Shown piece after piece: positions 6,400 through 47,030 of a DNA stretch of 64,000 nt (position 1 is its first letter; the number at the start of each line of letters is the position of its first letter). Both the position numbers and the translations under genes were made by a program. Below the pieces are notes generated by a model. The model searched no databases, was not told the DNA's origin, and saw only the letters and a program-made list of their open reading frames with translations. The DNA is taken from contig NC_071110.1 in NCBI RefSeq assembly GCF_024256425.1, positions 2,188,274-2,252,273 on the forward strand, written 5' to 3'. Source of the stretch: Clarias gariepinus. Lineage: Eukaryota.

Positions 6400-8640
6400 A
6401 GCAACTTTACACAATCAAAAGAATTAAGTTTGTACGAAATGTGAATATGTATGAATCAAAATAATAAGATTGTTCCTGATGAGCAAGCCGAGGACAACGG
6501 CGACAGTGGCAAGGAAAAACTCCCTGAGATGGTAAACCAGACTCAACAGGGAACCCTTTCTCATTTGGGTGAAAACGGACAAAAGGGATTTTATTTAATA
6601 CTATGTGAGACTGGAAGTTAAGTATAACAGGAGATGTGTTAAATTAAAAGGAGTCCAGTTTGTTCTTGGAGGCTCAGGTAGACTGTAGGAAATTCCAGTC
6701 CTGAACTATTGAGCGACTGAAGTCACAGGTCCTCAAAAAACAGCTGTCTGCATCAGTCGAGGACAGGACCACCTTTGTGAAAAAGTGGAACCATCCCCAG
6801 TCACCACACGCATCCCAGGCAGACCACACGTGGTCTGGATCACTGGCAGCACAGGAGCGACATGTATACATGTATAGCTCGACAGAGAGATAGGTAGAGG
6901 TAAAGGAAGAGAGCAGAAGAGAAGTGAGCAAAAGAGAGAGAGATGGCAGTTAGGTATGGTTACAGTCGAACAATGTATAAGGTGAATATATATTTAGTGC
7001 AAGTAGGGACTCCGGCAAGACTAACTATGACAGCATATAACACTATTTGGAAGACTGTTCCATAATTTTGGGTCTTTGTAAGAAAAAGCTCTGCCCCCTA
7101 CTGACAAGCAGCCTGCATCCTTTGACCGAAGTAGGTGTGATAGACGTAAGACACTAGCAGGTCGCTCAGATACTGCGGCGCGAGACTATTTAATGCTTTA
7201 TATGTCAAGAGTAGTTATTTTAAAAACAGTTCGAAATTTCACGGGGTGCCAATAAAGTGAAGATAAGATAGGTGTGTTGTGCTCGTATCTTCTGGTTCGA
7301 GTAAAGACTCTCCCTGCTGTATTCTGGATTACCTGAAGCTTGTTTATGCATCTGGTTAAACAACCAGACAGTAAGGCATTACAATAGTCCAACTTAGAGG
7401 TGATAAAAGCATGAACTAGTTTTTCTGCATCGTTTAGCGACAGTATGTTTCTTATCTTGGCAATATTTCTGAGGTGAAAGAATGCTATCCTGGTAATATT
7501 ATCTACATGAGCTTCAAATGAAAGGCTGGAATGTATAATCACACGGAGGTCTTTTACTGTTGAACTTGATGGAACAGAAAGGCCATCTAAAGTTACGGTG
7601 TGATCTAAAATTTTACTCCTAGCTGTATGCGGTCCTATGACTAGAACTTCTGTCTTATCAGGATTAAGCAGAAGGAAGTTAATCAGCATCCAATCAATTG
7701 CTCAACTTTAGTAAGCTGGTTTTAATCATCTGGTTTTGCTGAGACATATAACTGTGTGTTTTCAGCATAACAATGAAAGCTAATACCATGTTTACGAAGG
7801 GGAAAAAGCAGTGGGCCTAAAACTGAATCTCGTGGAACACCAAAGTCAACTAGAGAGCATGCAGAATATTCACCATTTAAGTCTACATTTTGGCATTTGG
7901 CAGACGCTCTTATTCAGAGCGACTTACAATTTTATCTCATTACACATCTGAGCAGTTGAGGGTTAAGGGCCTTGCTCAAGGGCCCAACGGTGGCAACTTA
8001 GTGGTTGTGGGGTTTGAACCTGGGATCTTCCGAACAGTAGTCCAATGCTTTAACCACTGAGCTACCTACATACTGATAACGATTGGTCAAATAGGATCTG
8101 AGCCAGGAGAGGGCTGTACCCTTAATTTCTACTACATTTTCTAATCTGTGCAGAAGAATACCATGATCAATGGTGTCAGAAGCTGCACTAAGGTCGAGTA
8201 ATACAAGCATGGTTACACAATCTTGATCAAAGGCCAATAGGAGGTCATTTACTACTTTAACGAGTGCTGTCTCTGTGCTGTGATGAGGCCTAAATCCTGA
8301 CTGATACAGTTCATGTATGCTATTTCTATGTAGATATGAGCATAGCTGCTCCGCTACTATTTTCTCGAAAATCTTAGAGATGAAGGGGAGGTTTGATATT
8401 GGCCTGTAATTGGACAGCTGACAGGGGTCGAGGTCAGGATTTTAGTAATCAGTTTAATAACTGTAAATTTAAAAGATTTTGGAACATACCTAATGCTGAG
8501 TGAGGAATTCATTATTCTTAACAGGGGTTCTGTTATTATTGGTACTATCTGTTTAAGAAAATGTGTCGGTATAGGATCTAATATACAGGTTGATGAATTT
8601 GCAGAAAAGATGAGTGAAATGAGTTAATTCTCTTTAAGGG
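6400..8640 (-). mobile_element. L2-type LINE (RT region plus C-terminal tail), degenerate, interrupted by a SINE
   Basis: Minus-strand ORFs carry RT motifs: LLDLSAA.DT.DH..LL.RL (7998..8237) and NLRVIIHSSLSFEAHVDNITRIAFFHLRNIAKIR...SKLDYCNALLSGC (7198..7689). The tail downstream reads ...AGCLSVGGRAFSYKDPKLWNSLP, which is the C-terminus typical of fish L2. Confidence 0.7.
7885..8070 (-). mobile_element. tRNA-derived SINE with L2-LINE-like tail, inserted into the LINE RT region
   Basis: It is the reverse complement of the 12451 copy. The tRNA-like head has an A box (tagctcagtgg) and a B box (ggttcaaaccc). The 3' part contains cagacgctcttat.cagagcgacttaca, which is shared with the 3' tails of the L2 LINEs in this window. 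Confidence 0.7.
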
Positions 8641-17419: not shown

Positions 17420-19545
17420 CATTTACATTTAGGCATTTGGCAGACGCTCTTATCCAGAGCGACTTACAAAAAGTGCTTTAATGTTTACATAATTGGATAC
17501 ATATTTACACTGGGTTAACTAGGTTAATAACTAAGTGCCATTAGTCCAACACAACTAAGAAGAGGTTTTTTTTTTTGAACTAGGTTAGTCCAAGTACGGG
17601 AGAAACAGATGAGTCTTGAGTCGTCGTTTAAAGATAGTCAAAGTCTCTGATGTACAGACATCTAGAGGAAGTTCATTCCACCACCTAGGTGCCAGAACAG
17701 AGGAAAGAGCCTGGATGAATGCCGCCCTCGATCCCTGAGAGATGGTGGGATGAGGCGAGCAGTGCTGGAGGATCGGAGGGAACGTGGTGCAGTGCGTGGT
17801 GTAATTAGCGCAGAGAGGTAAGTGGGTGCTGGGCCATTTTTAGCTTTGTAGGCAAGCATCAGTGCAGGGAGCGGAGGAGTGGGGTGGTGTGGGAGAACTT
17901 GGGGAGGTTAAAAACAAGATGTGCTGCTGCATTCTGGATCAGTTGCAGAGGACGAATCGTGGACAGAGGCAGGCCTGCCAGGAGTGAGTTGCAGTAGTCC
18001 AGTCTTGAAATAACAAGGGACTGAACAAGCACCTGAGTAGCCTGTGAAGAAAGAAATGGGCGAATTCTTCTGATATTGTAAAGAAAAAATCGACAAGAGC
18101 GAGTAAGGTTAGCGATGTGTGGGGAAAATGACAAATGATTGTCCACGGTTACCCCAAGATTGCGGGCGGTGGCTGAAGGAGTGATTTGGTTGTTGTCCAT
18201 GGATATCACAAGGTCTTGACCTGGAGATGAGTCACAAGGGATAAACAACAGTTCAGTTTTACTGAGGTTGAGCTTCAGCTGATGAGCAGCCATCCAAAAT
18301 GAGATGTCTGCCAGACATGCTGAGATCCGGGTGGAAACCTGAGCGTCAGAGGGAGGAAAGGAGAGAACAAGTTGGGTGTCAAGAATTTTGGAAATAAAAG
18401 ATAGCAGTGATACCGGGCGATAGTTGTTAATTTCTGATGGGTCCAGGCAGGGTGCATTTCTTGAGGATGGGAATAGCCCTCGCCTTCTTAAAAGCGGCAG
18501 GAACATGACCAGATGATATGGATTGGTTGATGATGGCTGTGGTGAAGGGAAGGAGGTCCCGTGAGATGGCCTGGAGCATTGTGGAAGGGATTGGGTCTAA
18601 TGAACAGGTGGTGGGGTTAGATGACGAGATGATCTGTTGAATCTCATCAGATGACAGGTTGGAAAATTCTGCTAAAGGAGGGAAGGAAAGGTCCTGAGGT
18701 TCTGCCGTAGGAGCTTGGTTGAGAGCGAAGGACTGGCGGATTGCTGCAATCTTCCCATCGTAGAATGTGGCAAAATCGTCAGCAGTCAGAGAGGAAGGGG
18801 CAGGAGGAGTCGGTGGGTTGAGTAGTGAGGAGAAGATGTTGTGGAGTTTGCCAGGATCATGTGCAGAGGCTTCCAACTTTTTTCTGAAGAAGGTAGTTTT
18901 GGCAGAAGTCACAACACATGAGAATTTGGAAAGAAGAGTCTGGTAAGAGATGAGATCTGCATCAAGTTGCGATTTCTTCCATCTTCTCTCCGCATTTCTT
19001 AATTCTTTCCTGTTGTTGTGCAGTACATCAGATAGCCAAGGAGCAGGACAAGACGTCTTCCTTGGTTTAGATGACAGCGGGCAAAGGAGATCTATGGATG
19101 AGGAGAGAGAGGAGAGGAAAGTTTCAGTCGCAGTCTCTAGTGGTAAAGAGGAGAAGGAGTCTGGGTCTGGGAGGAATGATAGGGTGTATGAAGACACAGA
19201 GGAAGGCGAGACAGAGTGAAGGTTTTTGCGGGTAAAAGAGACATTTTGGTGGTTAGGTTTACATAGAATGGGAAGGGTTATTGTGAAGGATACCAGGTAA
19301 TGATCAGATTTATGAAGAGGAATAGTAGTGATATCTGTGACTGGGGAAGGGCGGCAGAAAACAAGGTCGAGAGAATTTCCTGCCTTGTGTGTAGGAGGGC
19401 AGCTGTTTAGAGTTAAAGAGAAGAAGTTAAGGAGAGGGAGAAGGAAAGAGGATTGGAGTTTATCAGATGGAAGGTTGAAATCTCCTAGAACAGTGAGAGG
19501 AGTGTTAGCTGCACCAAAATAACTTCAGTGCCTTCTGGTTAGTGT
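17420..19545 (-). mobile_element. L2-type LINE, 5'-truncated with internal deletion of the RT core
   Basis: The 3' tail at 17420-17640 carries tttacatttaggcatttggcagacgctcttatccagagcgacttaca. C-terminal RT reads ...[14 protein letters not shown]...KTHLF. RT N-terminal and ORF linker regions lie at 18427..19197. Relative to the copy at 45881..47017, the sequence jumps from SKILDTQL straight to VLSFPPSD, with no YADD motif. Confidence 0.8.
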
Positions 19546-27029: not shown

Positions 27030-27342
27030 GTAAGGGTTAACCCCTAGAGGGCGCCAAAGCGCCCAAAGTTTGGTTTTCGTTGTGTTGATTTTGTTGTAGT
27101 TTTGTTTAGTTTGGACTTCATGTCCCAGACTGCACCTTGGTCAGGTGACATAAGGATTCACCTGAACCGAGGTAAGCTAATTAGGTTTATTATAAATAGC
27201 CTGACTGGAGCACAGTCAGGCGTCTAGCTTTAGTTGTTATTTATATGATTTATGTCGGTGTTTATTTATGTGTTTATTTAAAATAAAAACCTTTATTGAA
27301 ACGCCAGCTCGCCTCCTGCAATTATGCCACCCAAACACAGTT
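27030..27342 (-). mobile_element. Solo LTR (reverse orientation) of the small LTR family seen at 36552..38563
   Basis: It is the reverse complement of LTR 36552-36878, from ggttaaccc.ttaca to gccagctcgcctcctgca.ttatgccac. It abuts a 5'-truncated LINE that begins at about 27342. Confidence 0.65.
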
Positions 27343-33230: not shown

Positions 33231-33522
33231 GTGGTGCAGCATATGCGTCTTTGTCTCATCTACGTTCAGAGACATGCACGGTGAGAGAGACATCCTGGTC
33301 CACAGTGTTTTCCCAGAAATACGAAAACGAGTGGCTCCCTTCTGCCTCTACCTGCAGGAAGTGGACCTGCGCTGGGGCATCACCGAGAAGGAGTCAGCAC
33401 GCATCACTGAGATCTGCCTGCAGGAAGTTTGTCGCTCCCATGTGTTGCTGGGAATTCTGGGAGAGAGATATGGCTGGGTGCCGCCTCGCCCCCCGCTGCC
33501 TGACATGCCTCAGTACAGCTGG
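33231..33522 (+). CDS. NWD1/NWD2-family gene, DUF4062 exon
   Basis: The acceptor is ttgttgacag and the donor is TGG|gtaaga. It translates to [97 protein letters not shown]. This matches the conserved N-terminus of the NWD proteins; compare human NWD2 VRVFISANPEDTGAERQALRENVYPKLREFC...EFQVIDLYWGV...CFVGLLGEKYG and NWD1 FEVVDLRWGI...ALIGDQYGP. Confidence 0.8.
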
Positions 33523-34407
33523 GTAAGAACTCAAAGGGAAAGTGATAATTAATTATGTAATGATTTAATACTTTATTACTGTAGGCTTGTATGGTCACAA
33601 AGTTACATTTATTCATTTTGTATTTTTTTTATACTTTACTGCCAGAATGGAAGGTAACTGAGTAAATTTACTTACTTTCTGTACGTAAGTACTTATTTTA
33701 TGTATCTGTACTTTACTTGGCTCAGTGCGCATGTGTCGCTCTTATAGTCAACATCCATGAGCATGTGTACTGTTTACTAAAACACTGTGACCACATGTGT
33801 GCGCGTAAAGTGTCTTTTATTTTGTGTTTGTATGTGTTTGTGTAGAATGACTTTCACACACACAAACACACATAAGTTTACTGAATAGAGGCTCAACTGT
33901 GTGCTTCTGTGAGTGTAAGTCTCTATTTGGTAAAAAAAAAAAAGAAGAATTAAAGAATTCTTTGTCCCCTTTTGTCTGCAAGCTATGTGTGTCCATGTGT
34001 GCACAGGTGCTTTATCAGTAAACTGGTGTGTATGCGCAGACGTGTTTGTGTACTGTAAGTTAACCTACACAGCAGCCCCCTCCCTCCACTCCTTTCTTTA
34101 TTCTCAATCACTACAACTATGCAGTCATTTTTTAAAATAAATTACCGTTATTATGAGAAGTACATTTTTTCTGTGTCGATACCTAAAACATTATATACAG
34201 CAAAATGTATTTTTTACTCAGCACTGAATACCATCATTCAGATAAACATATTAAATACGAATACAAAAAATGAGTATAGGTTTTTATTTTGTACACTTTT
34301 GTAAGCTTTTTTGTGATCTTCATTAATGCCCAAAGCACAGCGAAAGTGATTATACAGAAATTAAGTTTTTCTAATACTGTAAATTTTTATTTTTATTACT
34401 GTATACA

Positions 34408-35362: not shown

Positions 35363-36526
35363 CAGTGGGGTAAAAAAAGTATTTAGTAAGCCACCAATTG
35401 TGCAAGTTCTCCCACTTAAAAAGATAAAAGAGGCCTATAATTTTCATTATAGGTATACCTCAACTACAAAATAAGAAAAGAATTTCCAGAAAATCACATT
35501 GTAAGACTTTTAAAGAATTTATTCGCAAATTATGGTGGAAAATAAGTATTTGGTCAAAAACAAAATTTCATTTCAATACTTTGTTATACACCCAAACATT
35601 TTCTGTAAGTCTTCACATGGTTTTCACATACTGTTGCTGGTATTTTGGCCCATTCCTCCATGCAGATCACCTCTAGAGCAGTGATGTTTTGAGAATGTTG
35701 CTGGGAAACACGGACTTTCAACTTCCTCCAAAGATTTTCTATTGGGTTGAGATCTGGAGACTGGCTAGGCCACTCCAGGAACTTGAAATGCTTCTTATAA
35801 AGACACTTTTTATAAAGTACTCCTGGACAGGTACTGGCTTAAGCAGGGGGACAGGTCTGGCACTGCAGGATTTGAGTCACTGGCGGTGCAGTGTGTTACT
35901 GATGGGAGACTTTGTTACCTTAGTCCAGCTCACTGCAGGTCATTTACTAGGTCCCCCCGTGTGGTTCTGGGATTTTTCCTCACAGTTCTTGTGATCAGTT
36001 TAAACCCAACGGTGAGAGCTTGCGTAGAGCCCCAGATCGAGGGAGATTATCAGTGGTCTTGTATGTCTTTCATTTTCTATCAATTGCTCCTACAGTTGAT
36101 TTCTTCACACCGAGCTGCTTATCTATTGCAGATTCAGTTTTTGCACCCTGGTGCAAGTCTACAATTTTGTGTCCTTTGACAGCTCTTTGGTCTTGGCCAT
36201 AGTGGAGTTTGGAGTGTGACTGTTTGAGGTTGTGGACAGGTGTCTTTTATACTAATAGTGAGTTTAAACAGATGCCATTAATACAGGTAATGAATGGAGG
36301 ACAGAGGTGACAAAATACTTATTTTACTGAAGAATTTACCAAATAATAAATTAAAAATCCTACAATGTGATTTTCTGGATTTTATTTCCTTATTTTGTCT
36401 CTCATAGTTGAGGTATACAGGTATACATATACCTACTATATGATGAAAATTACAGGACTCTCTCATCCTTTTAAGTAGGAGAACTTGCAGAATTGATCGC
36501 TGACTAAATGCTATTTTGGCCCACTG
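35363..36526. mobile_element. Tc1-like DNA transposon with about 200-bp terminal inverted repeats, internally deleted (non-autonomous)
   Basis: It starts CAGTGGGGtaaaaaaagtatttagtaagccaccaattgtgcaagttctcccacttaaaaag, and its reverse complement is at 36320-36526. It is flanked by TA dinucleotides (35361-62, 36527-28). The internal ORFs do not encode an intact transposase. Confidence 0.75.
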
Positions 36527-36551
36527 TAATAAAAGAAAATGTTAAAGATAT

Positions 36552-38563
36552 TGTCACGATTCTTCCGTTGGTGTCTGTGTGTGCGTGGCATAATGTGCAG
36601 GAGGCGAGCTGGCGGTTTAGTATTCGGCTTTTATTAAATAAACACATAAAATAAACACCAACCTAAATCAACTCAAAGGACAACAAAAGCTAGACGCCTG
36701 ACTGTGCTCCAGTCAGGCTCTTTATAATCAACTTAATTATCTTACCTCGGTTCAGGTGAATTCCCACGTCACCTGACCGAGGTGCAGTCTGGGACACGCA
36801 GTCCAACTTAAACACAAACTATAACAAAAAACAAACAAACCCAGGCGCTTTGGCGCCCTCTAGGGGTTAACCATTACAGTACCCCCCCCCTAAAAAACGC
36901 TCCTCCGGAGCGTTACCGGAGGACCCGGACTCCCTCCCCAGCGGTCCCAGTTTGGACTCCCAACACCGAGACGGCTGAGGAGCTGGAGCGACGCTCGGCG
37001 GCGGCTGAGGAGCTGGAGCGACGCTCGGCGGCGGCTGAGGAGCTGGAGCGACGCTCGGCGGCGGCTGAGGAGCTGGAGCGACGCTCGGCGGCGGCTGAGG
37101 AGCTGGAGCGACGCTCGGCGGCGGTGGCTGAGGAGCTGGAGCGACGCTCGCTGAGCTGGGCGGCGCCGGCGGCGGAGCTGGAGCGACGCTCGCTGAGCTG
37201 GGCGGCGGCGGTGGCGGAGCTGGAGCGACGCTCGCTGAGTTGGGCGGCGGCGGCGGAGCTGGAGCGACGCTCGCTGAGCTGGGCTGCGGCGGCGGCGCTG
37301 AAGCGACGCTCGCTGAGCTGGGTGGCGGCGGCGGCGCTGGAGCGACGCTCGTTGAGCTGGGCGGCGGCGGCGGCGCGATGTCCTCAAAGCCGGGAGGCGG
37401 AGGAAGCAGCAGGCCAGCCTGGAAGCCCGGCTGAGGAGCCGGAGCGTCGTTCGCTGTGTCCCTCGGCGGCTGCTAAGCTGGCGCGATGTCCTCAAAGCCG
37501 GAAGGCGGAGGAAGCAGCAGGCCGTCCTCGAAGCCCGGCTGAGGCGCTGGCTCGATGTTCGTGCAGCTTGGAGGCGGCAGATCGGCAGTGCCGCACACGA
37601 CGCTTGGCGGCTGTGGAACGGGAGCGACGTCCCCCATGTCTGGCAGAGGCGGCGGCGGTGGAGTAAACGTGACTGGCAGCCGCGGCACGTAGACCTCCGC
37701 GTTGACTACAGGTGGGAGCGGGAGGAGGAGTGCGTCGTCCAGATTAGAGAGAGGGAGAGTATCCGGAGCTACATCGCGGTTCTCTCAAACCTGGACGAGC
37801 AGCCTTTGGAGTAGCGCCACCTGCTCCCGCAGGTCGGAAATGCGCTCTCTGTTTAGCTGTGCCAACAACGTGTAGTCCTCCTCCGTTAGATCCACGTCAC
37901 CGTCCTGCCAGGCCTCCTCGGCCCGTGCCTCTTGGATGGTGGTTTGGACCGTGTATCTCCCCGCTGCCTCACCCTTAAACGCCGTCCGCCGAATGGCGAG
38001 TCTGCAGCCTTCCCAGCTGTGCCGCGCTCTTATCTCTCGCTGCTCTTCGCTGTTTTCCAGCCAGTCCGCCGGTTCGATCAGCTTGCAGCCTTCCCAGCTC
38101 TGCAGGAGCTCTCTCTCCCCTTGCTCCTCGCTGTCCTCCAGCCATTCCGCCAGCTCGGGCGAGATGGTGATAGCGCCCCCCCAAAAAACGTCTGGGGGAG
38201 CGACCTCCGCTATGCCACTTCGACGGTCTAGCTTTCTGTCACGATTCTTCCGTTGGTGTCTGTGTGTGCGTGGCATAATGTGCAGGAGGCGAGCTGGCGG
38301 TTTAGTATTCAGCTTTTATTAAATAAACACATAAAATAAACACCAACCTAAATCAACTCAAAGGACAACAAAAGCTAGATGCCTGACTGTGCTCCAGTCA
38401 GGCTCTTTATAATCAACTTAATTATCTTACCTCGGTTCAGGTGAATTCCCACGTCACCTGACCGAGGTGCAGTCTGGGACACGCAGTCCAACTTAAACAC
38501 AAACTATAACAAAAAACAAACAAACCCAGGCGCTTTGGCGCCCTCTAGGGGTTAACCGTTACA
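36552..38563 (-). mobile_element. Compact LTR element (2.0 kb): 327-bp LTRs (TG...CA), 5-bp duplication GATAT, G-rich PPT-like run, internal minisatellite and two ORFs I do not recognise
   Basis: Direct repeats 36552-36878 and 38236-38563 are over 95% identical and run from tgtcacgattcttccg to ggttaacc.ttaca. The pentamer gatat sits at 36547-51 and again at 38564-68. On the minus strand a G9 run lies 3 nt from the LTR at 36879-36895. ORF 37785..38276(-) is 163 aa with an internal duplication (AEWLEDSEEQGERELLQSWEGCKL / ADWLENSEEQREIRARHSWEGCRL). ORF 36890..37495(-) runs over a 30/39-bp minisatellite. Confidence 0.75.
36955..37380. repeat. GC-rich minisatellite (about 30-bp unit x5, then about 39-bp unit x6) inside the compact LTR element
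   Basis: gcggctgaggagctggagcgacgctcggcg repeated five times, followed by g(t/c)ggcggagctggagcgacgctcgctgagctgggcggcg-type units. This produces long artefactual ORFs on both strands. Confidence 0.85.
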
Positions 38564-38676
38564 GATATTTATAGTTCCAGGGATTTTAATGAGTTTATTA
38601 TTTTTGAAGGTACATTACAGTTTTCTGTGACATTGTTAAATATTAATAGCTTTATAATTGTGTGTGTGTGTGTCAG

Positions 38677-38798
38677 TTGAAGTCGGCTCCTGAAGGTCTG
38701 TCGATTACAGAGATGGAGATCCGGCAGTTTCAGGCTAAGTTTTCTGATTCTGCTCAGAACCGCATGTTCTTCTACTTCAGATCTCCTCAGCTGCTCAG
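38677..38798 (+). CDS. NWD-family gene, next exon (phase 0 start, ends mid-codon)
   Basis: The acceptor (tg)n-tcag sits after the (TG)n tract and the donor is CAG|gtattt. It translates to LKSAPEGLSITEMEIRQFQAKFSDSAQNRMFFYFRSPQLL and its frame continues from the previous exon. Confidence 0.55.
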
Positions 38799-38827: not shown

Positions 38828-41722
38828 ATATACACTGCTCACAAAAATTAAAGGAACACTTTAAAGAAACACATTAGATACATCAGATCTCAATATGAAG
38901 TTGGATATCTATACAAATAACGACAGGGCAATGTCTTAGGAACAAAAGGATGCCAAGTCTTTTAATGGAAATAAAAGTTTTCAGCCTACAGAGGGCTCAA
39001 TTGTGTAGACACCCTAAAATCAGAGTGAAATGAAGATGTGGCAGGCTAGTCCATTTTTTCAAAAACTTAATTTCTGCAACTCAAAATGCTTTTCAGTATC
39101 TTGTGTGGCCCCCACGAGCTTGTATGCATGCTTGACAACATCGGGGCATGCTCCTAATGAGACAACGGATGGTGTCTTGTTGCATTTCCTCCCAGATCTG
39201 TGTGAGGGCATCCCTGAGCTGTTGTACAGTCTGAGGTGCGGTGCTTAATGGACCGAAACATAATGTCCCACAGATGTTCTATTGGGTTTAAGTCAGGGGA
39301 TCGTGAAGGCCATTCAATTGTTTCAATTCCTTCATCCTCCAGGTATTGCCTGCATACTCTTTTTTTTTTTTTTTTTTTTTCCCGGCCTGTCAGTATCACA
39401 GATAACACATAGCTGAGTGTATGTGTAGCTGTTCTATCATCATTTACAGCCATTTTTTTTTAATATTTATTTATTTATTTATTTATTTTGTTTGTTTCCC
39501 ATATTATAACAGACAAGACCGGGGACCAAAAAAAGAGAAGAGAGAGTAAAAAAAAAAAAAAATCAACCAAAAAAAAAAAAAATAATAAATAAATAATAAT
39601 AATAAAAAAAAAGAATAAAAATAAATAAACAAACAAACATTTAAGGGAAAAAAAAGGGAAAAGAGAGAGAAAAAAAGAAGAAGGGGGGAGTGGGAGGGGG
39701 GAGAGAATACAGTCAAAATTCGCTTCCGGACCTGCCGAAGAAAAAGAGAAAAAACAACAGAAGACACAACAGCAGAGAAACCGCAGCCACAACCAACACC
39801 TGCACGACTCGCGGCAAACCACAAATCCCAAAACCTGTTGAGCCGCGCACATAATAAAATATTTTGAAATAAACATTTTGTTTTGAAGCAACAGCAAAGA
39901 CAGTGTGTGTGTGAGCACCTGTTTGTACACCAGTGTGAACGTTTGTGTGCACACCTGTGTGTGTGAGCGCGCTTGTTTTCATAGGGCTCCTCCATATAAA
40001 TGTTTAATAGTGTGTGTGGGGGACCACAGTCCCGTCCCGCGAGGCATGGAGCAGATATGGCGGAGACACGGGTCCCAGACATCCAGAGGGCCCCCAGAGC
40101 ACAGAAGTCTTAGGAGAACCACCGCAGGGACAGCCCCCCCACCCCGAAAGGGGCAGCGGAGAGCCCAGAGGGGGGTCATCTAGCAGCCCCAGTGCAGACG
40201 CCACAGGGGGCCGTGGTGACAGGACCGCAGGCTCCGCCGGTGGTCGTCCACTCCGAGGCAGTCCGGTCCCTGGGTCCAGAGATCCCACGGCCCCCCCCCC
40301 ATCCACCAGCCGGTGCCCCGCCAAGCCAGGAGAGCCAGATCCCGCCCAGCGACCGCCGCGAGTGAGCCAGCGCTCACCCGAGCGCCCCGCCCCGGAGCGA
40401 GAAACCAACAACCCACCAGCGGCTGGGGGCACCCCACAGCTGTGTGTGGTGGCAGAGCAGGGGGGGCCTGGGATGTTGAGAGAGGTGGAGTCTAGGACCT
40501 GACCTGACACCTAAACGTAGACAGCCAGGCACACACATACACAAACATACATTCCCACCCTCATACACACAAACAAATATTCACGCACTCACACATGTAG
40601 ACACACAAAAATAGACAGTATACACACTCACACTCCCCATATACCCACTTCCCTCCGCCGTGGGGACAGAAAGACCACCCCGGTCCCCGCAGCAGCGGAA
40701 AGGACCACCAGCCCAGACCCTGCCTGCATACTCTTGCCACATGGACCAGGCATTGTCGTGCATTAGGAGGAAACCAGGACCTACTGCACCAGCGTAGGGT
40801 CTGACAAAGGGTTCAATGATTTCATCTGGTTACCTTATGGCAGTCAGACCACCATTTCCTAGGCAGTAGAGGTCTGTGCGTCCCTCCATGGATATGCCTC
40901 CCCAGACCATCACTGACCCACCACCAAACCTGTCATGTTGAACAACGTTGCAGGCAGCATAACGTTCTCCTTGTCTTCTCCAAACTCTTTCACGTCTATC
41001 ACAGCTGCTCAGGGTGAACCTGCTCTCGTCTGTAAAAAGTACAGGGCGCCAGTGGCGGACTTGCCAATTCTGGTGTTCTTAAGCAAATGCCAGTCGAGCT
41101 CCACGGTGCTGGGCAGTGAGCACAGGGCCCACTACAGGACATCGGGCCCTCAGGCCATCTTCATGAAGTCTGTTCCTGATTGTTTGGGTAGAGACATTCA
41201 CACCAGTGGCCCTCTGGAGGTCATTCTGTCTTGCACAAAGGAGCAGGTATCGGTCCTGCTGATGGGTTGAGGACCTTGTATGGCCCTGTCCAGCTCTCCG
41301 AGAATAACCGCCAGTCTCCTAAAAACTCCTCCATGTTCTGGAGATTGTGCTGGGAGACACATTAAACCTTCTTGCTGCAGCACGTGTGGATGTGCCATCC
41401 TGGAGAAGTTGGACAACCTGGCCAACTTCTGTAGGGTTAAGGAATCGCCTCATACTGCCAGTAGAGATAATTACTCAAGCCAAAACTAGCACGAGTGGAA
41501 AACCAGCCAAAAAAGATCAAGAGGGAGAAACTTGAAATGACCTCCACATGTAAAATCGGTCCTGTTTTGAGGGTTTTCTAATTGTTACCATTGTAGTGCA
41601 CCTGTCGTTAAGTCCATGAACACCAATACAGCTGAAAGTGATTAACAATGCCCTCAGCTGCAGATTTAATTGATTTCATGCCAGGCCCAATAAAAAAAGT
41701 GTTCCTTTAATTTTTGTGAGCA

Positions 41723-45695: not shown

Positions 45696-47030
45696 ACATT
45701 TACATTTACATTTAGGCATTTGGCAGACGCTCTTATCCAGAGCGACTTACAAAAAGTGCTTTAATGTTTACAACATTGGATACATACTTACACTGGGTTA
45801 ACTAGGTTAATAACTAAGTACCATTAGTCCAACACAACTGAGGTTTTTTTTTTTTTTTTTTTTTTTCGGGGGGAGGGGGGTTAGTCCAAGTACTGGAGAA
45901 ACAGATGCGTCTTGAGTCGTCGTTTAAAGATAGTCAAAGTCTCTGATGTACGGACATCTAGAGGAAGTTCATTCCACCATCTAGGTGCCAGAACAGAAAA
46001 GAGCCTGGATGAATGCCGCCCTCGATCCCTGAGAGATGGTGGGATGAGGCGAGCAGTGCTGGAGGATCGGAGGCAACGTGGTGCAGTGCGTGGTGTAATT
46101 AGCGCAGAGAGGTAAGTGGGTGCTGGGCCATTTTTGGCTTTGTAGGCAAGCATCAGTGTTTTGAATTTGATGCGGGCAGCTACAGGAAGCCAGTGCAGGG
46201 AGCGGAGGAGTGGGGTGGTGTGGGAGAACTTGGGAAGGTTAAAAACGAGTCGTGCTGCTGCATTCTGGATCAGTTGCAGAGGACGAATCGTGGACAGAGG
46301 CAGGCCTGCCAGGAGTGAGTTGCAGTAGTCCAGTCTTGAAATAACAAGGGACTGAACAAGCACCTGAGTAGCCTGTGAAGAAAGAAATGGGCGAATTCTT
46401 CTGATATTGTAAAGAAGAAATCGACAAGAGCGAGTAAGGTTAGCGATGTGTGGGGAAAATGACAGATGATTGTCCACGGTTACCCCAAGATTGCGGGCGG
46501 TGGTTGAGGGAGTGATTTGGTTGTTGTCCATGGATATCACAAGGTCTTGACCTGGAGATGAGTCACAAGGGATAAACAACAGTTCGGTTTTACTGAGATT
46601 GAGCTTCAGCTGATGAGCAGCCATCCAAAATGAGATGTCTGCCAGACATGCTGAGATCCGGGTGGAAACCTGAGTGTCAGAGGGAGGAAAGGAGAGGACA
46701 AGTTGGGTGTCGTCTGCATAACAGTGGTATGAGAATCCATGCGATGATATGACCTTACCAAGAGACCGGGTATAGAGGGAGAACAGAAGAGGACCAAGTA
46801 CTGAGCCCTGCGGGACACCAGTAGAGAGTCTACGTGGGGCAGATGTAGATCCCCTCCATGTTACCTCATATGACCTATCTTTAAGGTAAGAAGCAAACCA
46901 TTGCCACGCTGTTCCACAAATTCCAAGGCTTGTAAGGATAGATAATAGAATCTTGTGGTTCACGGTGTCAATACATATATTGACGGTGTCTCGATTAATA
47001 AGCATATCCTGAAACAAAGTTAGTCAAGAA
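45696..47030 (-). mobile_element. L2-type LINE, 5'-truncated (RT plus complete 3' tail), near-intact ORF
   Basis: The 378-aa ORF 45881..47017 carries [35 protein letters not shown] and ends ...[23 protein letters not shown]. The 3'UTR contains tttacatttaggcatttggcagacgctcttatccagagcgacttaca. Confidence 0.85.

Follow-up and report, generated by a model that had tools for sequence, protein, structure and literature searches.

The described systems closest to the locus treated here are the non-autonomous retrotransposons with long terminal repeats (LTRs), together with the self-priming Ty3/gypsy elements. TRIM and LARD elements are defined by their lost internal coding capacity, and for TRIM a size bound of <2 kb has been given (PMC4350172). 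The RNA of Tf1 pairs through its first 11 nt with its primer-binding site (PBS), the primer being released by an RNase H cut (PMC7175516); such self-priming is characteristic of the Tf1/Sushi group, vertebrate members included (PMC6317226, PMC4600332). In this article we describe an LTR element of 2,012 bp in total (36552-38563, sense strand minus) in a 64,000-nucleotide stretch of the Clarias gariepinus genome (NC_071110.1, positions 2,188,274 to 2,252,273; hereafter the window, whose numbering is used throughout). The element is a recently inserted and now inactive copy of an LTR retrotransposon. Its best explanation, to which we give a probability of roughly two in three, is that it belongs to a non-autonomous teleost family which is self-primed, carries one orphan gene and is mobilised in trans.

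Structure of the element and its probable priming signal

The structural marks of an LTR retrotransposon were all found: direct LTRs with TG..CA ends, a target-site duplication in the 4-6 bp range, a polypurine tract (PPT) upstream of the 3' LTR and a PBS downstream of the 5' LTR (Table 1). A preliminary description of the locus, made from the same DNA, had proposed a complete LTR element with TG..CA LTRs, and in these basic features it proved to be right. The two LTRs (TGTCACG...GTTACA on the plus strand) have three mismatches and are thus 99.1% identical, better than the >95% first stated, and 3/3 differences are CpG transitions. The reported GATAT duplication is exact at both ends, where a 5-nt match would be expected by chance in about 1/1024 of cases, and the polypurine-like G9 run of the minus strand is found as C9 at 36882-36890, 3 nt (TAC) from the LTR. 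The divergence between the LTRs (K=0.009), together with the position of all the differences at CpG sites, indicates that the insertion is young; by generic vertebrate substitution rates its age is probably no more than ~1-2 million years. The interior of 1,358 bp has 68% GC (window overall: 40.5%) and is, as had been recognised, too small for pol, and since there is no room for pol the element is non-autonomous.

Both the TATAAA box and the AATAAA signal stand on the minus strand and the G-run PPT adjoins the left LTR, therefore the sense strand is minus, in agreement with the first description, and the right LTR is the 5' LTR. Based on TATAAA (LTR position 153), AATAAA (244) and the proposed self-primer (184), U3 would extend over positions 1-183, R from 184 to ~265 and U5 from ~266 to 327. 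Both window LTRs were aligned with a related LTR fragment at 27 kb of the window and with the LTR of L001, another copy, whose 5' LTR is 84% identical to the window LTR and is followed by the same leader. The conserved blocks of this alignment are the LTR ends, the GGTTAACCCCTAGAGGGCGCC block, the TATA box, the polyadenylation signal and the segment GGCGTCTAGCTTT. Two palindromes of U3 are also conserved, their stems being invariant while the loops differ between the copies aligned, and one of them (CCTGACTG-N5-CAGTCAGG) lies past the TATA box and ahead of the proposed start site; such a pattern would suit hairpins or dimer-binding sites that are functional.

Among the cis features of the element the most informative is its PBS, which is apparently self-priming. 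The 5' LTR is followed by G AAAGCTAGAC CGTCG..., in which the ten bases beginning 1 nt after the LTR are the perfect complement of the LTR segment GTCTAGCTTT (LTR positions 184-193). This segment begins 31 nt downstream of TATAAA, so that position 184 is where transcription, and hence R, should begin. It reads GTCTAGCTTT in the 3' LTR, in L001 and in the LTR fragment, and ATCTAGCTTT in the 5' LTR of the window copy, where the primer begins with A and not with G, one of the three CpG mutations which followed the insertion. When the LTR was shuffled, a complement as long as this 10-mer within the first 15 post-LTR bases arose in 0.2% of the trials (p=0.002). Furthermore, L001 has the same primer and PBS and the 27-kb LTR fragment the same primer, although the sequences diverge by ~16% overall. 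When the RNA was folded from position 184 up to a point 30 nt beyond the LTR, its 5' end was paired with the PBS in the minimum free energy structure, with pair probabilities of 0.8-1.0 for the window copy and 0.3-1.0 for L001. Judging from the sequence, the element appears to be self-primed in reverse transcription, with no recourse to a tRNA. According to the proposed mechanism, RNA polymerase II would start ~31 nt past TATAAA, at LTR position 184; the 10 nt at the start of the transcript (GUCUAGCUUU) would fold back and pair with the PBS, which is complementary to them and lies 1 nt past U5, and this 5' end would then prime minus-strand DNA synthesis in the Tf1/sushi manner, with no tRNA involved.

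The candidates for a tRNA primer were rejected. The sequence adjoining U5 (GAAAGCTAGACC) has no TGG start, so it is not a tRNA PBS of the type found in endogenous retroviruses (ERV), and the site at +20 (TGGCATAGCGGAGGTCGC) was rejected on the rules for the tRNA T-arm and is not known to match any tRNA 3' end. A tRNA priming at this sole TGG, 20 nt downstream, would have to carry G where C61 is conserved. ARAGORN found no tRNA, and Rfam gave no match at E<=1 over 36400-38700.

A hairpin in the leader beyond the PBS is kept in L001, where a C-to-T change yields a G.U pair, and it may be considered a candidate packaging or dimerisation signal. A separate observation is that the motif CGTTTTTT(A)GGGGGGG occurs twice in the element, as one half of this hairpin (38174-38202) and at the PPT (36882-36900); it may serve as a second plus-strand priming site or provide homology for template switching.

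Table 1. Features of the element, its relative at 27 kb and the flanking host exons (window coordinates)
Feature	Position	Strand	Remarks
LTR fragment, related subfamily	27029..~27334	+	84% identical; without the last ~24 nt of U5; adjoins a LINE fragment bearing reverse transcriptase
Host exon, start of DUF4062 domain (NWD/TEP1-type gene)	33274..33522	+	GTAAGA donor at 33523
Target-site duplication GATAT, left copy	36547..36551	.	flank ...AAAGATAT, then TGTCACG
3' LTR	36552..36878	-	327 bp; 3 CpG-transition differences from the 5' LTR
469-codon reading frame, ATG in U5 to TAA within the 3' LTR	36867..38276	-	from translation; homologs P0001, P0002, P0003
Polypurine tract AGGGGGGGGG	36882..36891	-	then TAC, then the 3' LTR
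30-bp and 39-bp 'minisatellite'	36972..37373	-	in-frame 10- and 13-codon proline-rich repeats, PSVAPAPQPP / PSSASVAPAPPPP
108-bp (36-codon) duplication	37372..37561	-	carries the LLLPPP(P/S)GFEDIAP motif
Leucine-zipper / coiled-coil segment, residues ~131-163	37788..37886	-	predicted helix 132-162, pLDDT ~80; heptad I-L-V-L-L-V
81-bp (27-codon) tandem duplication	38003..38151	-	encodes the acidic WLEDSEEQ..SWEGC repeat; 1.8 copies by TRF
Leader hairpin CGCTCCCCC-AGACGTTTTTT-GGGGGGGCG	38174..38202	-	35-63 nt past the 5' LTR; read from the sequence
Primer-binding site AAAGCTAGAC	38226..38235	-	10-nt perfect complement of GTCTAGCTTT
5' LTR	38237..38563	-	327 bp; sense strand TGTAACGG...CGTGACA
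AATAAA polyadenylation signal, 5' LTR	38315..38320	-	LTR positions 244-249; from LTR sequence and alignment
Proposed self-primer / start of R	38371..38380	-	LTR positions 184-193
Palindrome in U3 of the 5' LTR	38382-38402		CCTGACTG-N5-CAGTCAGG; corresponding positions in the 3' LTR
TATAAA box, 5' LTR	38406..38411	-	LTR positions 153-158; kept in L001 and the 27-kb LTR fragment
Palindrome in U3 of the 5' LTR	38429-38467		CCTCGGTCAGGTGAC-N7-TCACCTGAACCGAGG; corresponding positions in the 3' LTR
Target-site duplication GATAT, right copy	38564..38568	.	...CCGTTACA, then GATATTTAT
Next host exon, DUF4062 continued	38677..38798	+	Pfam match spans the junction

The interior reading frame, its product and its relatives

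The preliminary description had divided the interior into two separate open reading frames (ORFs) and a GC-rich minisatellite. It was found that the two ORFs are fragments and that a single frame, read past a TGA and a TAG, takes up the interior from end to end. The frame starts with an ATG inside U5 (LTR position 288), extends over 466 codons with two stops (TGA 37785-37787 and TAG 37473-37475) and is closed three codons later by the TAA within the invariant GGTTAACC of the 3' LTR. The remaining five frames have 7-12 stops each. The described 163-aa ORF (37785-38276, minus strand) exists, although merely as the front part of the 469-codon frame, while the ORFs at 36890-37495 (minus) and 37124-37666 (plus) were dismissed as genes, being off-frame or antisense readings of the repeats. 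In the alignments the TGA corresponds to Arg in the related protein P0002 and to His in P0001, and the TAG to CAG in L001; since both stops stand opposite sense codons in relatives, they look like C-to-T changes from sense codons. The ORF of the window copy is inactivated by these two nonsense mutations.

The repeats of the interior belong to the same frame. TRF confirmed the arrays of the minisatellite (30-bp unit x5.9 at 36972-37150 with 97% matches, 39-bp unit x7.5 at 37083-37373), although not as something apart from the ORF: the GC-rich tract is an in-frame expansion of proline-rich repeats and forms the tail of the protein. The internal duplication nearer to the start was put at 24 aa, which has to be corrected to 27 aa (81 bp). 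All four repeat periods (30, 39, 81 and 108 bp) are multiples of three. With respect to annotation this means that an apparent orphan ORF and a GC-rich minisatellite are one transposable element gene.

The L001 copy has an uninterrupted ORF of 356 codons from the same U5 ATG, its 3' part being replaced by sequence resembling a short interspersed element (SINE). The GC content by codon position is 0.72/0.46/0.72 in the window copy and 0.77/0.52/0.68 in L001. A comparison of nonsynonymous and synonymous rates (dN/dS) across copies had been suggested as a check on the ORF; for one pair, the window copy and L001, the Nei-Gojobori value was 0.56 overall (Fisher p=7e-4) and 0.39 in codons 36-110 (p=0.012). 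Codons 1-35 overlap U5, PBS and leader, and here dS is very low (0.11) with dN close to it, as expected from cis constraint at the nucleotide level.

These data bear on the explanation that the open frame is a by-product of 68% GC and tandem repeats, the interior being non-coding cis sequence of a TRIM/LARD-like parasite. GC-rich sequence is poor in stops, and 2% of the shuffles had two or fewer stops in any frame; the window copy carries two stops, two further copies (L002 and L007) have frameshifts, and the ORF matches no protein family. Against this stand the strong 3-periodicity of GC in two diverged copies, the open 356 codons of L001, a dN/dS below 1, the repeat periods divisible by three, and a start codon and LLPPPPGFED-type motifs which are conserved across the relatives. 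We consider the by-product explanation unlikely.

The predicted protein begins with a basic stretch (11/20 first residues are R, K or H), followed by two acidic 27-aa repeats, of which P0002 has one unit. The helix predicted at residues 132-162 has clean 3-4 hydrophobic spacing, resembling a leucine zipper in both the AlphaFold2 model and the sequence. The tail is 23% proline, with recurring [F/L]PPP..acidic and LLPPPPGFED motifs; these motifs are common to the window copy, the Clarias gariepinus relatives and P0003. PPPY occurs in P0003 and in the relative P0108 and is absent from the window copy and P0001. The preliminary description saw no gag similarity in the ORF, and the profile search it called for gave the same answer: Pfam had nothing above noise for any of the long ORFs, P0001, P0003 or the proline-rich tail, with gag, RVT, rve, RVP and zf-CCHC included. 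A profile search of the PDB with the protein gave no match, and an exhaustive HMMER search of 1.84 billion protein representatives recovered three copies of the element and no homolog outside the family.

Relatives of the element were recognised both as proteins and as DNA. The search of 5.8 billion protein clusters returned two RefSeq models of Clarias gariepinus: P0001, which bears the UniRef/RefSeq name 'protein diaphanous homolog 1-like' and lies at the L001 locus, and P0002, the C-terminal part of an MS4A-like model, for whose locus an exact look-up gave no record. The HMMER search added only P0003. The Logan contig of P0003 (L002) is a more diverged copy, in which the proline-rich frame leads straight into G7-TAC and then TGTAAGGGTTAACCCCTAGA; this G7-TAC|TGTAAGGG is the same junction of PPT and 3' LTR as in the window element, which makes the compact order of LTR, ORF, PPT and LTR normal for the family and not a one-off deletion. 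L007 is a rearranged copy with U3 and TATA box joined directly to the interior. Thus a family with further copies, as first proposed, is represented by L001, L002 and the 27-kb LTR fragment; it is a family of non-autonomous teleost LTR retrotransposons with relatives in Clarias gariepinus and one other sequenced organism. The exact look-up of the 163-aa ORF found no match on record, and a scan of metagenome and viral contigs with an LTR 20-mer pattern gave 0 matches. Four metagenome matches of a leader 19-mer (L003-L006) were dismissed as chance, since they cover 19-20 nt only; L003, the only one of the four whose composition was read, has 61% GC.

It was also observed that the RefSeq models XP_053355691.1 (L001 10001-16044) and XP_053354836.1 (P0002) of Clarias gariepinus are partly built from copies of the element: the former begins at the LTR ATG and the latter fuses an MS4A/CD20-like N-terminus to the element ORF. 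Both are likely to be annotation artefacts or exonisation events. Relatives of the element are mis-annotated in RefSeq, one under the name 'diaphanous homolog 1-like' and one within an MS4A-like gene.

The name of P0001, and the FH1-like proline richness of the tail, would agree with a host gene fragment, for instance of a formin-like proline-rich gene, captured between LTRs by transduction. However, the exhaustive search revealed no host homolog beyond the three element copies, the ORF begins in U5 and ends in U3, and P0001 most likely owes its 'diaphanous' name to nothing more than low-complexity similarity, so that such a capture is very improbable. Another explanation takes the element for an internally deleted ERV, with the ORF as an MA-p12-like front of gag including a proline-rich 'late-domain' region, in which template switching removed CA, NC, pol and env, after which the deletion derivative was amplified. 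An N-terminal domain followed by a proline-rich segment does resemble the gammaretroviral MA-p12 layout, PPPY is found in the relatives P0003 and P0108, and the T6-G7 motif shared by leader and PPT could mark the site of a template switch. Nevertheless the element has no tRNA-type PBS, its protein shows no retroviral gag similarity in Pfam, the PDB or the 1.84 billion proteins, the 5' LTR end is unlike TGWAGNMRR, the gamma motif (PMC3601003), the compact layout is repeated in the window element, L001 and L002, and the window copy and P0001 are without PPPY. Descent from an ERV is therefore improbable in our judgement, though less so than gene capture.

We return to the explanation of a self-primed, non-autonomous element with one gene of its own. 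Its reverse transcriptase, RNase H, integrase and probably capsid would be supplied in trans by an autonomous fish Ty3/gypsy element (Sushi- or Gmr1-like), and its own protein of ~469 aa would most likely act as a self-associating adaptor, aiding the entry of the element RNA into the partner's particles. A bolder form of this idea is that the family is a vertebrate single-gene LTR parasite with a conserved non-capsid product, a new adaptor with basic RNA-binding N-terminus, leucine zipper and [F/L]PPPP-acidic motifs of the type bound by EVH1/WW/SH3, which hijacks the particles of a self-priming Ty3/gypsy partner or the host trafficking machinery. We regard this as speculative and rather unlikely; if it is true, a non-autonomous retrotransposon would here compete for mobilisation by means not described before. 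More generally, if self-priming and coding constraint both hold, the family would offer a compact system in vertebrates, with one gene in 2 kb, for studying RNA recognition by self-primed Ty3/gypsy elements and the competition for partner machinery by non-autonomous LTR elements with their own protein.

Several points weigh against this reading. The transcription start is placed by its spacing from the TATA box, and the copies holding both primer and PBS are two, identical in these segments and so without covariation. The overall dN/dS is only moderately under 1, its value for the N-terminal domain (codons 36-163: 0.64, p=0.09) is not significant, and the alignment of the proline-rich part is uncertain. 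L002 and L007, with their frameshifts, are decayed copies. The AlphaFold2 model of the 163-aa ORF, built on a 3-sequence alignment, reached a mean pLDDT of 52.8, too poor for a fold search, and with no homolog outside the family the function given to the protein is a guess. Finally, a word-indexed search with the U5-encoded N-terminal peptide for gag-pol proteins sharing the leader gave no candidates, and no autonomous partner or pol sequence appeared in the protein, LTR and leader searches, so the superfamily is assigned from cis features.

Host gene and surrounding features

The element lies antisense in a 5.15-kb intron and ends 113 nt upstream of the acceptor of the exon at 38677, which is directly preceded by a (GT)n run (region 38564-38676). 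The exons on either side encode DUF4062, and a further exon at 62819-63001 encodes part of a WD40/TEP1 propeller; these fit the call of an NWD gene, within whose intron the preliminary description had correctly placed the element. The best matches to the host exon are only 70-79% identical. Being inserted so near the splice acceptor of this NWD/TEP1-like gene, the element may matter for its splicing.

A solo LTR of the same family had been reported at 27030-27342. What stands of this is a related LTR in reverse orientation which adjoins a long interspersed element (LINE) bearing reverse transcriptase. The identity of 84% places it in another subfamily, and since U5 is truncated and its missing end was not found downstream of the LINE or elsewhere in the window, the fragment is not demonstrable as a solo LTR with target duplication.

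Other repeats of the window were noted as well. To the left of the element there are inverted repeats at 35368-35556 and 36308-36522, 84-91 nt long with 79-82% complementarity, which enclose ~1.1 kb and stop 30 bp short of it, with Tc1/mariner-like sequence at 35728-35775; this is probably the remnant of an older DNA transposon by the insertion site. Three UnaL2 LINE 3' elements on the minus strand (7887-7940, 17427-17480 and 45710-45763) score above the Rfam gathering threshold, and nearby there are long reverse transcriptase ORFs (17859-19197 and 45881-47017); these are LINEs of the L2 type that is typical for teleosts. Segments between stops that begin identically and agree in length are seen twice, ~6.5 kb apart (~50378-52300 and 56900-58900), which indicates a recent tandem or segmental duplication in the host gene intron. 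At 40004-40510 a GC-rich patch amid AT-rich surroundings carries 160-aa ORFs that overlap, on both strands, and abound in G, P, S and R.

Comparison with known systems

The element is well formed and at the same time an ordinary kind of fish repeat. It shares with TRIM and LARD the LTRs, PBS, PPT and target-site duplication, the lack of pol and mobilisation in trans. With 2,012 bp and 327-bp LTRs it is at or just above the <2 kb bound of TRIM; classic TRIMs are far smaller, with LTRs of 100-250 bp. LARDs, in contrast, exceed 4 kb and have a long non-coding interior, while this element has 2.0 kb and a coding one. Since TRIM and LARD imply a non-coding interior and here a coding frame fills it, the element is neither, and the TRIM/LARD-type family first suggested is contradicted by the 469-codon frame, the 3-periodicity, dN/dS<1 and the open L001 copy. 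On the other side, no gag or pol region (protease, reverse transcriptase, RNase H, integrase) is present which would make it an autonomous LTR retrotransposon or ERV. The small-RNA-derived LTR elements (Cassandra, Helenus/Ajax) are also different, as no 5S, tRNA or other small-RNA module was detected by Rfam or ARAGORN.

In architecture the closest system is TR-GAG, here with an orphan protein: these are likewise non-autonomous elements of <4 kb which have a PBS, a PPT and an interior filled by exactly one ORF, and whose partner supplies the pol functions. Unlike in TR-GAG, neither Pfam nor the PDB nor the 1.84 billion proteins gave a gag, capsid or zinc-knuckle match for the ORF, the element has a vertebrate host, its PBS is apparently self-priming instead of tRNA-type, and the ORF reaches from U5 into U3.

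Concerning the probable partner, the element agrees with the Tf1/sushi group (Tf1, Tj1, sushi-ichi; PMC7175516, PMC4600332, PMC6317226) in having by U5 a PBS complementary to the inferred 5' end of its own transcript (10 nt, vs 11 nt in Tf1) and no tRNA PBS; it differs by the lack of gag-pol, and the likeness is one of cis features. Compared with the Sushi LTR motifs TGTYANR/CNTNACA, its 3' end CGTGACA fits, whereas the 5' end TGTAACG has A at Y, and its LTR falls short of the mean length in the Sushi training set, 572 bp (PMC3601003). Both ends fit TGTNANR/CGTNACA of the Gmr1-like fish Ty3/gypsy elements (rGmr1 LTR model, PMC3601003 Table 3), which share with it a fish host and a T-rich U3, this likeness being one of 7-nt degenerate motifs, and LTR-end motifs are weak discriminators. 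As far as the sequence goes, the priming signal points to a self-priming Ty3/gypsy partner. The kind of element is thus already known, and the points worth recording are its self-priming signal, an orphan gene that extends from U5 to U3 and a 'minisatellite' that is coding.

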